Assembly (NCBI GenBank): GCA_018971685.1
Contig: JAGXAG010000002.1
Span: 2,276 to 66,275 of the forward strand
Reading direction: 5' to 3'
Source of the DNA: Patescibacteria group bacterium
GTDB taxonomy: Bacteria; Patescibacteriota; Minisyncoccia; Phycocordibacterales; PALSA-1337
Length of the DNA stretch: 64,000 bases
A program made the translations under genes and the position numbers. The stretch's first letter is position 1. Each line of letters starts with the position of its first letter. Shown piece after piece: positions 5,321 to 8,224 of the stretch. The notes below the pieces were generated by a model. The model did no database searches and was not told the DNA's origin. It saw only the letters and a program-made list of their open reading frames with translations.

Positions 5321-8224
5321 ATGATGATTTTCATGAAAAAAGAACAGAAATACGCACCCGCCAAGATAGAGAAAAAGTGGCAGAAAAAGTGGGCGGCGGC
5401 GAAAATCTATAAGACGAAAGAAGGCGGAAAGACCGGTAATAAAAGTTCACCGCAAGATAAATATTATGTGCTCGACATGTTCCCATACCCGTCCGGCGAA
5501 GGCTTGCATGTCGGCCACCCCAAGGGCTATATCGCCACCGATGTTGTTTCCCGAATGAAACGCATGCAGGGCAAGAATGTGTTGCACCCCATGGGTTTCG
5601 ACGCTTTCGGACTGCCGGCAGAAAATTACGCGCTCAAGATGAAGAAAAATCCGATGGACTTGACCGCCAAGAATGTGAAGCGGTTCAAAGATCAGCTGGA
5701 AATTCTCGGCTTCGATTATGATTGGTCGCGCGAAGTCAACACCACCGATCCGAAATATTACAAATGGACGCAATGGATATTCTTGCAACTTTTCAAGAAG
5801 GGCCTGGCTTACGAATCATTCGAGCCCATCAACTGGTGTCCTTCATGCAAAACCGGCCTTGCCAACGAAGACATCGAAAACGGCCGTTGCGAGCGCTGTG
5901 GCACACCGGTTGAGAAGAAGCCGATGCGTCAGTGGGTTTTGAAGATTACTGATTATGCGGAGAGGCTTCTGAATGATCTGGATGCAAAAAATAATGACGG
6001 CAAGCCGCTTCTCGATTGGCCGGAATCGATAAAAGAGGCGCAGAGGAATTGGATAGGGAGGAGCGAGGGAGCACTGATAAAGTTTCGATTCCAAGGTCGG
6101 ACCTTGGAAGTGGAAGTATTCACGACGCGGCCGGATACTTTGTTCGGCGTGACTTATTTGGTATTGGCGCCGGAGCACAAACTAGTCCAAGAATTATTGG
6201 CTGATGTGGAAAATCGCAAAGAGGTCGAGGAATATGTCTCAAAAGCGCGATTGGAGACGGAAATAGAGCGCACTGATGTCAAAAAAGAGAAAACGGGCGT
6301 GGAATTGAAAGGCATCAAGGCGATAAACCCGGCCAACAATGAAGAGGTGCCTGTATGGGTGGCCGACTATGTTCTGGCCGATTACGGCACAGGCGCCGTC
6401 ATGGCGGTGCCGGCGCACGATGAGCGCGATTGGGAGTTTGCGAAGAAATTTGATTTGCCTATAAAGGATGTTGTTAGGCATGTTTGGGGCAATAAATTAC
6501 CTAATGAAGAATTTAGAAAAAGTGTATGTGCAATAGTTAGGAATAAGAAAGACGGCAAAATATTATTATTAAAGTGGAAAAACGGTGAGAAATGGATTTC
6601 CCCGGTGATCGGGGGTGTTGAGGATAGAGAATCATATGAAGATGCTGCAGTACGAGAGGTCTTGGAAGAAACTGGTTACAAAGCAAAAATAGTTGAACCT
6701 ATAAGTTTTGAAATAGATTCTCATTTTTTCGCTACACATAAAGGTATTGCTAGGCATAGGACAATCAAACATTTCCTTCTGGAAACAAATGAAGATAGTC
6801 ATGTAGGTGTTTCTAAGAAAGAATCTGAAAAACATGAACTATTTTGGACCACTCTCGATGATGCAATAAGTTGTATAACTCACAGTGATAATAAAATAGG
6901 TCTACAGGGAATTAAATCTGGAAACTATTCCTATATTGGAGAAGGTGTTCTGGTTAATTCTGGTCAATTCAACGGAAAAAATTCAGAGGAAGTCAAAAAA
7001 GAAATCACGGACTTTGTTGGCGGGAAATGGGTGACGAAATACAAATTGCGAGACTGGGTATTCTCGCGGCAAAGGTATTGGGGCGAACCGATCCCGATCA
7101 TTCATTGCGGGAAGTGCGGCGTAGTGCCGGTGCCCGAGAAAGATCTGCCGGTCAAATTACCGAAAGTGAAGTCGTACGAGCCGACCGGGACCGGGGAATC
7201 ACCATTGGCGGCCATAAAGAATTGGGTGAATGTGAAGTGTTCGAAATGCAAAGGCCCGGCCAAAAGAGAGACAAATACCATGCCGCAATGGGCCGGTTCG
7301 TCTTGGTATTATTTGAGATACGAGGATCCCAAGAATGCCAAGAAATTGGTTGATCCGAATAAAGAGAAATACTGGTCGCCTGTTGATCTCTATGTCGGCG
7401 GCGCCGAACATGCCACGCGGCACCTAATTTACGCGCGTTTTTGGCACAAATTCTTATATGACATAGGCGTCGTTTCGGCGATCGAGCCGTTCAAGAAGCT
7501 CCAGAATGTGGGGCTCATTATGGGTGAAGATGGTAGAAAGATGTCCAAGCGGTTTGGCAATGTGGTCAATCCTGACGACATTGTGAATGCTTACGGCGCC
7601 GATACCATGCGCATTTACGAAATGTTCATGGGGCCCTTTGATCAACAGATTTCATGGAGCACTTCAAGCATGGTCGGTGCTCGCAGATTCATTGAAAGAG
7701 TATGGAAATTAAGAAAACACACGGCGAGCGAGGAGGGAGAGGCGCCGACCGGGCGCGTTGATAAAATCTTACATAAGACCATCAAAAAGGTTACGAAAGA
7801 TATCGATGACCTAAAATTCAACACCGCAGTAAGTTCACTCATGATTGCCGCCAACGAATTGGAAAAAGTTAAGTCAATAAGCCGCGAGCAGTTCGAAATA
7901 CTGTTGAAACTGCTGGCGCCGTTCATCCCACATGTTGCCGATGAATTGTGGACCGGTTTCGGCAACAAGAGATCAATCCATGTCTCGGGATGGCCGGTGT
8001 GCGACGAGAAGTTGTCGGCTGAGGAAAAAGTGACGATTGCCGTGCAAGTCAATGGCAAAACGCGCGGTTCATTCGAGGCACTTATTGATATTCCTGACGA
8101 TGAATTGAAAAATAAGGCTCTTAGTTTGCCGGAAATAAAAAAATGGATTGACGGTAAAGTTTTGAAGAAAACCATCGTCGTTAAAAACAAGTTGGTCAGT
8201 CTTGTGGCCTCTGATTTATCTTAA
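5321..8224 (+). CDS. leuS: Leucyl-tRNA synthetase carrying an inserted Nudix hydrolase domain (about aa 386-540)
   Basis: HIGH motif [8 protein letters not shown]. KMSKS motif [8 protein letters not shown]. CP1 editing-domain end-motif [12 protein letters not shown]. C-terminal anticodon-binding region. Between ...LPIKDVV and [13 protein letters not shown] lies about 155 aa with a perfect Nudix box [23 protein letters not shown]. Confidence 0.95.
   Translation: [967 protein letters not shown]

Follow-up and report, generated by a model that had tools for sequence, protein, structure and literature searches.

A Nudix domain nested in the CP1 editing domain of a patescibacterial leucyl-tRNA synthetase, and the exchange of such cassettes between leuS alleles

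Results

The leuS locus and its nested cassette

The window analyzed here, a 64,000-nucleotide (64-kb) stretch of contig JAGXAG010000002.1 from a Patescibacteria group bacterium, carries leuS, the gene for leucyl-tRNA synthetase (LeuRS), and the leuS open reading frame (ORF) is interrupted in frame by a cassette encoding a Nudix domain. A preliminary description, based on the letters of the window, had reported such a domain within LeuRS, and a Pfam profile search recovered it. The features of the locus are listed below (window positions, strand in brackets; aa, amino acids).

5321..8224 (+): leuS, ORF of 967 aa, TIGR00396; the database version starts at 5333 and has 963 aa (P0010, 100% identical)
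5507..5518 (+): HIGH motif of the synthetic site, here HVGH; from the translation, invariant in the alignment of relatives
6044..6484 (+): CP1 editing domain, N-terminal part, aa 242-388; PF13603 profile positions 1-143
6122..6139 (+): threonine-rich editing motif TTRPDT, intact; T269, R270, D272 and T273 invariant in the alignment
6386..6430 (+): editing-site motif with AHDERD, intact; from the translation and the alignment of relatives
6479..6940 (+): Nudix cassette, aa 387-540 (~153 aa), in a CP1 loop (site C); from Pfam, the Thermus alignment and a stand-alone model
6512..6865 (+): match to Pfam NUDIX (PF00293), aa 398-515; E 6.8e-18, 65.4 bits vs a cutoff of 21.1
6611..6679 (+): Nudix box, with R445, E446, E449 and E450; from the translation
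6941..7060 (+): CP1 resumes, through KYKLRDWV, end approximate; second PF13603 stretch, aligned from Thermus residue 377
7538..7552 (+): KMSKS motif, here KMSKR; from the translation and the alignment of relatives

In a curated-profile search, the ORF product scored 1027.6 bits against the TIGR00396 equivalog profile (cutoff 548.4), and a model of the full protein matched LeuRS structures in Foldseek at E 3e-68. The host protein is a bacterial-type LeuRS, ordinary apart from the nested domain. The leucine-specific domain, which precedes KMSKS in the LeuRSs of Thermus and E. coli, is missing: Thermus residues ~580-637 had no counterpart in the alignment (aa ~735-741; 7520-7540). This domain is a variable feature, and its absence does not bar membership of the bacterial type.

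A protein identical to the window LeuRS is recorded on 4 contigs (P0010, 'leucine--tRNA ligase [Patescibacteria group bacterium]'), and the window matches a 24-kb contig of a second assembly, GCA_028870795.1, at 99.98% identity along a 5.9-kb stretch that covers both junctions of the cassette. The preliminary description had named an assembly chimera as a way in which the architecture could prove false. Base composition does shift abruptly at both cassette edges, as it would in a chimera or a frameshift artefact, but the independent contig spans both junctions, the frame is open throughout and hundreds of relatives have the same architecture, so that the probability of an artefact is close to nil.

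Position of the cassette within CP1

The cassette splits the PF13603 profile between positions 143 and 144 of 185. Aligned with Thermus thermophilus LeuRS, it falls between residues ~366-370 and 377; the blocks that flank it are ~7-10 residues apart in the Thermus protein and 19-35 residues apart in insert-free relatives. The insertion site is therefore a loop inside CP1, rather than the junction of the editing domain with the catalytic core, where it had been placed before. CP1 is itself an insertion in the Rossmann fold, and the cassette is thus a domain nested in an inserted domain. In a 2026 survey of domain insertions, PF13603 was recorded only as an insert and in no event as a host (PMC13114784); this LeuRS family is a counter-example. 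The host resembles other bacterial LeuRSs with a PF13603-type CP1 in being of the ordinary bacterial type with intact editing motifs, and differs from them in that its CP1 hosts a further domain and the leucine-specific domain is also missing. The Nudix module would fold autonomously in a surface loop of CP1; the HIGH and KMSKS motifs and both editing motifs of LeuRS are intact.

The cassette is a Nudix domain

The box of the cassette fits the Nudix consensus GX5EX7REUXEEXGU (as given in PMC10148737) except at the last U, which is Tyr instead of Ile, Leu or Val. Among relatives' cassettes with a strict box, Tyr is the commonest residue at this position (46 of 61). The earlier statement that every canonical position is present thus holds for all positions but the last U; likewise, the previously given end of the insert stands and its start, 6478, was one base off frame (6479-6940 is correct). 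AlphaFold2 modeled the whole protein with a mean predicted local distance difference test score (pLDDT) of 78 and with 10-residue block means of 83-94 over aa 391-520; the cassette modeled alone reached 85.5. In Foldseek, the stand-alone model had 448 PDB matches at E<=1e-3, and all 50 listed were Nudix proteins. By profile, box and predicted alpha/beta/alpha fold, the cassette is a genuine Nudix domain, and not a CP1 extension without a Nudix fold, another way in which the preliminary description could have failed. Its canonical-type box and confidently predicted fold are in line with the catalytic competence predicted there.

Two other kinds of insert were considered and rejected. No intein family was found among the Pfam matches of the protein, whose junctions read KDVV/RHVW and YIGEG/VLVN in place of the Cys/Ser/Thr and His-Asn-Cys/Ser/Thr residues of an intein. 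Flanking direct and inverted repeats and target-site duplications, as expected of a transposable or insertion element, were sought, and only short, chance-level repeats were found.

Distribution in relatives and insertion hot spots

We drew the 120 closest LeuRS clusters from a collection of 5.8 billion proteins. Site C was scored in 80 leuS genes, namely that of the window and those of 79 out of 80 genome loci that each represent a species and carry the labels Taylor-, Yonath-, Vogel-, Morani-, Wolfe- or Lloydbacteria or Paceibacterota. PF00293 was present in 110 of the 120 clusters and a site-C insert in all 80 genes; both frequencies are upper estimates, as relatives were ranked by similarity to an insert-bearing query. 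Nudix-in-LeuRS is a lineage-wide feature of related Patescibacteria and no private novelty, the Nudix-bearing form being the majority state.

Alignment of the 120 relatives to an insert-free member of 810 aa (P0058) mapped five hot spots.

Hot spot A, just before LLDWPE: one or two tandem Nudix domains
Hot spot B, just before TTRPDT: alpha/beta hydrolase
Hot spot C, the CP1 loop that holds the window cassette: Nudix
Hot spot D, inside the HCxxC...VPVPE knuckle: serine hydrolase PF06821
Hot spot E, before KRETNTM: HAD phosphatase

The largest relatives (among P0012-P0124 and L070-L080) have ~1560 aa, and some LeuRSs carry three Nudix domains. The 30 relatives nearest by core identity (all 75-78%) ranged from 798 aa, without insert, up to 1558 aa. 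Clearly, LeuRS architecture is highly plastic among equally related genomes. The preliminary description had proposed looking for sister genomes with an insert-free leuS; three such relatives (P0058, P0106 and P0114) were found, sharing with the window the neighbourhood G6PD-YchF-leuS-sigma-DUF8128-YceG.

A strict Nudix box was kept in 61 of the 80 site-C cassettes. Individual loci showed other contents at this site: a Nudix of a different type in L018, a ~120-aa segment without family assignment in L056, and an S-adenosylmethionine-dependent methyltransferase domain (PF13489/PF08242, E ~2e-7) in L066.

Cassettes are exchanged among related LeuRSs

Across the site-C relatives, cassette identity was barely related to core identity (r = 0.17): where cores were 60-80% identical, cassettes averaged ~35%. 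For near-identical cores, the distribution of cassette identities was bimodal, as in the following pairs.

L070/L071: core 94%, cassette 98%
L006/L007: core 91%, cassette 96%
L074/L077: core 95%, cassette 38%
L059/L070: core 93%, cassette 37.5%

In eight pairs with a co-inherited cassette, the ratio of nonsynonymous to synonymous divergence (dN/dS) was 0.04-0.11 for the cassette and 0.05-0.11 for the core. These low ratios, together with the bimodal identities, rule out fast divergence as the cause of the differences between cassettes. In L070 and L071, synonymous divergence (dS) was 0.14 in the cassette, five-fold below that of the core (0.73), and by this measure the cassette was likely transferred very recently between the two species. 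Single-linkage clustering at 50% identity sorted ~84 site-C cassettes into 34 clusters, some of which combined members from site A, from site C and from free-standing proteins. These results show that the cassettes are exchanged and that co-inherited cassettes are under purifying selection. Several LeuRS loops would act as hot spots, where hydrolase cassettes would be acquired, lost or swapped as leuS alleles recombine.

Free-standing relatives and their linkage to leuS

An exhaustive HMMER search of 1.84 billion representative proteins with the cassette as query gave 704 matches at E <= 1e-3. Ten of the long matches were checked: nine proved to be LeuRSs or fragments of LeuRS, and one was a tandem-Nudix protein standing alone. 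The short matches were free-standing Nudix proteins. In 7 of 9 genomic contexts, the free-standing Nudix gene lay directly downstream of leuS, its start being <=~45 nt from, or overlapping, the leuS stop codon. The adjoining leuS was of the bacterial type with an uninterrupted CP1 in L083, L147 and L148 and of the archaeal type (TIGR00395) in L087, L145, L146 and L149, and the usual gene order on these contigs was leuS-Nudix-ScpB-RNase HII. The exceptions to leuS adjacency were L150 and L001, the latter with an IS66 transposase upstream and no leuS upstream. L147 and L001, at least, are archaeal to judge from TFIIB genes in the vicinity; those archaeal contigs that carried a label were DPANN-type. 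The RNase HII gene of L149 (6162-7531, - strand), close to the archaeal leuS-Nudix pair, contains an intein (Intein_splicing, LAGLIDADG).

The combination of two leuS types with a constant Nudix partner suggests that leuS was replaced in situ and the Nudix gene retained. Nesting in bacteria and adjacency to two types of LeuRS gene in archaea together form a fusion-plus-neighbourhood signature of functional partnership. As judged from this signature, the Nudix subfamily appears to be a dedicated partner of LeuRS: it is nested at site C and at the site before CP1 in related Patescibacteria, and is a separate gene on the 3' side of leuS in the recovered archaeal contigs and a few others.

Base composition and origin of the window cassette

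The inserted DNA had been judged by eye to be about one-third GC against about half in the flanking leuS sequence. This proved right: the GC content was 0.344 in the cassette and 0.482 in the remaining leuS, and only 0.2% of the 462-nt windows across the 64 kb were as AT-rich as the cassette. GC content at second codon positions (GC2) was 0.34 in the cassette vs 0.35-0.37, and that at third positions (GC3) was 0.23 vs 0.56-0.60. Since GC2 was equal and the shift lay in GC3, the difference is synonymous, and amino-acid composition was rejected as its cause. A two-change-point likelihood scan delimited the tract concerned.

6446..7003 (+): low-GC3 tract, codons 376-561; GC3 0.21 vs 0.57 outside

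The gain in log-likelihood was 39, with support intervals that place the start within codons 370-387 and the end within codons 548-566. The tract reaches past the cassette into conserved LeuRS codons in both directions: ~11 upstream, with 3 of 11 ending in G or C (P = 0.046), and ~21 downstream, with 5 of 21 (P = 0.002). Because the low-GC3 tract covers these conserved LeuRS flanks, the donor would have been a leuS gene rather than a free-standing one.

The identities of LeuRS cores and cassettes to those of the window were as follows.

L082: core 46%, cassette 45%
L084: core 55%, cassette 47%
L063: core 54%, cassette 42%
L004: core 65%, cassette 45%
Free-standing P0001-P0004: core not applicable, cassette 43-51%
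Closest LeuRS relatives: core 75-78%, cassette 24-36%

The free-standing proteins P0001-P0004 are among the nearest homologues of the insert; the preliminary description had proposed to look for such proteins. Relatives of the window's cassette type came mostly from genomes or loci with a GC content of 0.30-0.39. We searched for a donor with a word-indexed search of the 5.8 billion proteins, the exhaustive HMMER search described above and a metagenome scan. In these protein, HMMER and metagenome searches, no donor closer than ~43-51% identity was found outside the same species; the representatives were clustered on whole LeuRS proteins, so that closer cassettes could be hidden.

Judging from these comparisons, the window cassette was probably imported fairly recently from an AT-rich donor, and the import would have occurred by recombination with an AT-rich leuS allele at a pre-existing hot spot. 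The earlier notion of a recent acquisition into a native gene is thus retained as to the fairly recent import; the event itself is better described as cassette replacement from a leuS allele at an existing site. An alternative is that a foreign free-standing Nudix gene was inserted recently, and once only, into a native insert-free leuS. This would agree with the sharp GC3 contrast, the presence of free-standing proteins among the nearest relatives, the syntenic relatives with insert-free leuS and the fact that the insert represents an entire free-standing protein, N-terminal tail included; nevertheless, we regard it as very unlikely, considering that nearly all of the relatives sampled have an insert in the CP1 loop, that conserved LeuRS codons on both sides lie within the low-GC3 tract and point to a leuS donor, that distant LeuRSs hold the same cassette type at the same site, and that neither target-site duplications nor flanking repeats are present. 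AT-richness might also arise from selection or mutation in nested cassettes as such, for instance if slow codons aided co-translational folding of one domain within another. In 64 of the 80 loci, the insert did have a lower GC3 than the non-conserved codons of the core (mean difference -0.066, P = 1e-9), and the deficit lasts in cassettes co-inherited over dS ~0.4-0.8 (0.36-0.40 vs 0.54-0.56 in L047/L048/L075); conservation-linked codon bias was rejected as its cause, its effect being too small (-0.015). Nested cassettes may thus have some AT bias of their own, and AT-richness alone is weaker evidence of recency than had been assumed. As the whole explanation for the window, however, an intrinsic bias is rather improbable: the window shows the extreme deficit (-0.30, rank 1 of 80, z = -2.8), its cassette type and its core disagree in their phylogenetic affinities, relatives of this cassette type lie mostly in AT-rich genomes or loci, and the tract spills into LeuRS codons outside the cassette.

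Other features of the window

A second Nudix-like module in the window, also pointed out previously, was recovered in NusB (31196-32095, + strand), in which a PF00293 match (E 4e-7, aa 171-280) follows PF01029 (aa 7-136) as a C-terminal fusion. Its box, GKIPEGTDPKDGTVAKVKEEIGL, is degenerate (E7->T, R15->A, E16->K), and pairwise similarity between the NusB module and the LeuRS cassette was undetectable. On these grounds a link between the two was rejected; by its sequence, the NusB domain is probably non-catalytic and of independent origin.

The gene following leuS (8321-9367, + strand) encodes a protein of 348 aa with sigma-70 region 4 and HARE-HTH and is followed by DUF8128; relatives with the LeuRS insert and relatives lacking it share this synteny. 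The AlaRS ORF (17488-19374, + strand) is short, encoding 628 aa with the catalytic core and tRNA_SAD, and its 3' end is overlapped by an ORF of 408 aa without a Pfam match (19334-20560, + strand); the C-terminal region of AlaRS may be split or unusual. Other AT-rich patches (GC <= 0.37 in 462-nt windows) lie at 4607-5239, 16949-17641, 37048-37629 and 39122-39690. The first of these comprises a 94-aa ORF (4747-5031, no Pfam match) and the leuS upstream region; the remaining patches are gene ends or intergenic regions near alaS and the genes for a histidine phosphatase, enolase and an MFS transporter.

Discussion

Taken together, the results lead us to favor the reading that the cassette is a functional, LeuRS-partnering Nudix module in a CP1 loop, one of a set of exchangeable cassettes at hot spots; we consider this probable, though by no means certain. 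The box, the predicted fold and purifying selection as strong as that on the core argue for an active hydrolase. Its substrates may be dinucleoside polyphosphates derived from adenylates, such as diadenosine tetraphosphate (Ap4A), which is our best, still tentative, guess. Aminoacyl-tRNA synthetases (aaRSs) are a main source of Ap4A, and Nudix enzymes cleave it asymmetrically to AMP and ATP (PMC10148737). LeuRS would make Ap4A-type products from Leu-AMP and ATP, and the cassette would split them locally to AMP and ATP. The best match of the cassette sequence among solved proteins was the Ap4A hydrolase aq_158 of Aquifex aeolicus (PDB 3I7U; E 1e-8, 26% identity), followed by diphosphoinositol-polyphosphate/ApnA phosphohydrolases and the Thermus diadenosine hexaphosphate (Ap6A) hydrolase Ndx1. 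The top fold matches in Foldseek were 3I7U (E 4e-10, template modeling score 0.70-0.83), Rv2985, a diadenosine polyphosphatase of M. tuberculosis, Ndx1, Chlamydia CT771 and RppH; identities were 15-27% across the fold matches listed and 19-27% for the ApnA hydrolases, with RppH and MutT1 close behind. The earlier idea of Ap4A turnover is compatible with these nearest solved relatives. In Nudix Ap4A hydrolases, an aromatic residue ~16-17 residues after the box stacks on adenine. The SHFFA segment of the cassette (Phe-Phe) aligns with HYWYT of the Aquifex enzyme. 3I7U, Ndx1, Rv2985 and CT771 share the Nudix fold and box with the cassette but are free-standing, whereas the LeuRS cassette family is nested in the editing domain or encoded next to leuS.

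Several observations weigh against this reading. The cassette reached no curated NCBIfam Nudix family: the best match, NudB (dihydroneopterin triphosphate diphosphatase, NF006961), scored 38.6 bits, below its cutoff of 103, and RppH (RNA pyrophosphohydrolase, NF001936) scored 27.7 bits, below its cutoff of 118. Nudix specificity is notoriously hard to infer from sequence, and a role in Ap4A hydrolysis leaves the alpha/beta-hydrolase, HAD and methyltransferase cargo unexplained. In 19 of the 80 site-C inserts, the Nudix box is variant or absent, some of them being methyltransferase or unassigned domains. Equally close syntenic relatives lack the insert and also lack an adjacent Nudix gene; the module is therefore dispensable for LeuRS function in aminoacylation. 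The frequencies of Nudix-bearing LeuRS are upper estimates, and both the family-wide GC3 deficit and the lack of a closer donor in our searches weigh in the same direction.

The mixed cargo (Nudix, alpha/beta-hydrolase, HAD, methyltransferase and unassigned domains), the viable insert-free relatives, the inserts without a regular box and the frequent turnover of cassettes would also be expected of a passenger, that is, a non-catalytic structural or regulatory excursion or selfish or neutral cargo on an essential, well-expressed gene. We think this unlikely, as dN/dS is as low in the cassette as in the LeuRS core, the catalytic box is strict in 61 of 80, and the tight leuS-Nudix gene pair beside two LeuRS types is not predicted by passive hitch-hiking. 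Another explanation takes the cassette for a detoxification or arms-race module directed against leucyl-adenylate mimics or mis-activated adenylates, with swapping reflecting diversifying pressure. The association is specific to LeuRS, many deeply divergent cassette types are exchanged, each under purifying selection, and several hydrolytic chemistries cluster around CP1; moreover, the adenylate mimic TM84 has LeuRS as its target, LeuRS-TM84 complexes are found among the solved LeuRS structures matched, and NCBIfam lists an IleRS with a GNAT domain. This proposal is wholly inferential, however: no toxin or immunity genes were seen nearby, and we know of no Nudix enzyme that cleaves acyl-adenylates or phosphoramidates. 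We hold it to be quite improbable. Least probable of the functional alternatives is an RppH-like activity that removes pyrophosphate or a cap (NAD, Ap4N) from tRNA-Leu or other LeuRS-bound RNA. CP1 contacts the tRNA acceptor end, and the weak matches include RppH families and structures; yet the RppH score is far under its cutoff, Ap4A/Ap6A hydrolases rank higher, and we found no evidence here for such 5' ends on tRNA-Leu. A hydrolase that partners LeuRS remains the reading we prefer.

The arrangement resembles that of the trans-editing factors AlaX/YbaK, which are known both as free-standing and as fused aaRS accessory modules, and that of IleRS-GNAT (NF040702), in that a module, fused or separate, brings a second enzymatic activity to a bacterial class I aaRS. 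Those modules are editing-domain homologues or acetyltransferases in appended or terminal positions, whereas the window module is a Nudix domain that sits within a loop, has interchangeable alleles and is one of several cargo types. A further parallel is offered by the insertions in RNA polymerase beta/beta' (BEAN, HABAS; PMC11515920), which are likewise polyphyletic and recur at surface sites of an essential information-processing enzyme; they have been described as non-enzymatic structural folds, whereas LeuRS carries catalytic hydrolase families, with evidence of exchange between alleles. In the full-text literature searched (LeuRS/aaRS, Nudix, Patescibacteria/CPR/Parcubacteria, fusion/insertion), we found no description of the architecture, as the preliminary description had supposed. 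Nudix-bearing LeuRS proteins are already public and annotated with Pfam, one cluster being named 'NUDIX domain-containing protein'. What appears to be new is the nesting in CP1, the exchange of hydrolase cassettes at multiple hot spots and the leuS-Nudix pairing shared with DPANN-type archaea.

A wider idea, which we put forward as a long shot, is that Patescibacteria and DPANN archaea, both radiations of ultra-small cells, equip LeuRS with a dedicated Nudix activity as an additional, hitherto unrecognised layer of aminoacylation chemistry, one that would destroy a LeuRS-specific product derived from adenylates (Ap4A-type alarmones, mis-activated adenylates or toxins that mimic leucyl-adenylate). 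Catalytic accessory domains on aaRSs have mostly been discussed for eukaryotes. If the idea is true, alpha/beta-hydrolase and HAD cassettes may join the Nudix layer in bacteria, and the interchangeable cassettes may record an arms race or niche adaptation inside an essential enzyme.

For phylogenomics, the findings call for caution, since leuS is commonly used as a marker gene and is mosaic in these lineages; for protein engineering, they provide natural cases of domains inserted within domains and of cassettes being exchanged. They also raise the question of which nucleotide made by LeuRS has to be hydrolyzed on the spot in organisms whose metabolism is minimal. In these Patescibacteria, an essential synthetase serves as a modular scaffold, with up to five loops that carry exchangeable hydrolase domains.

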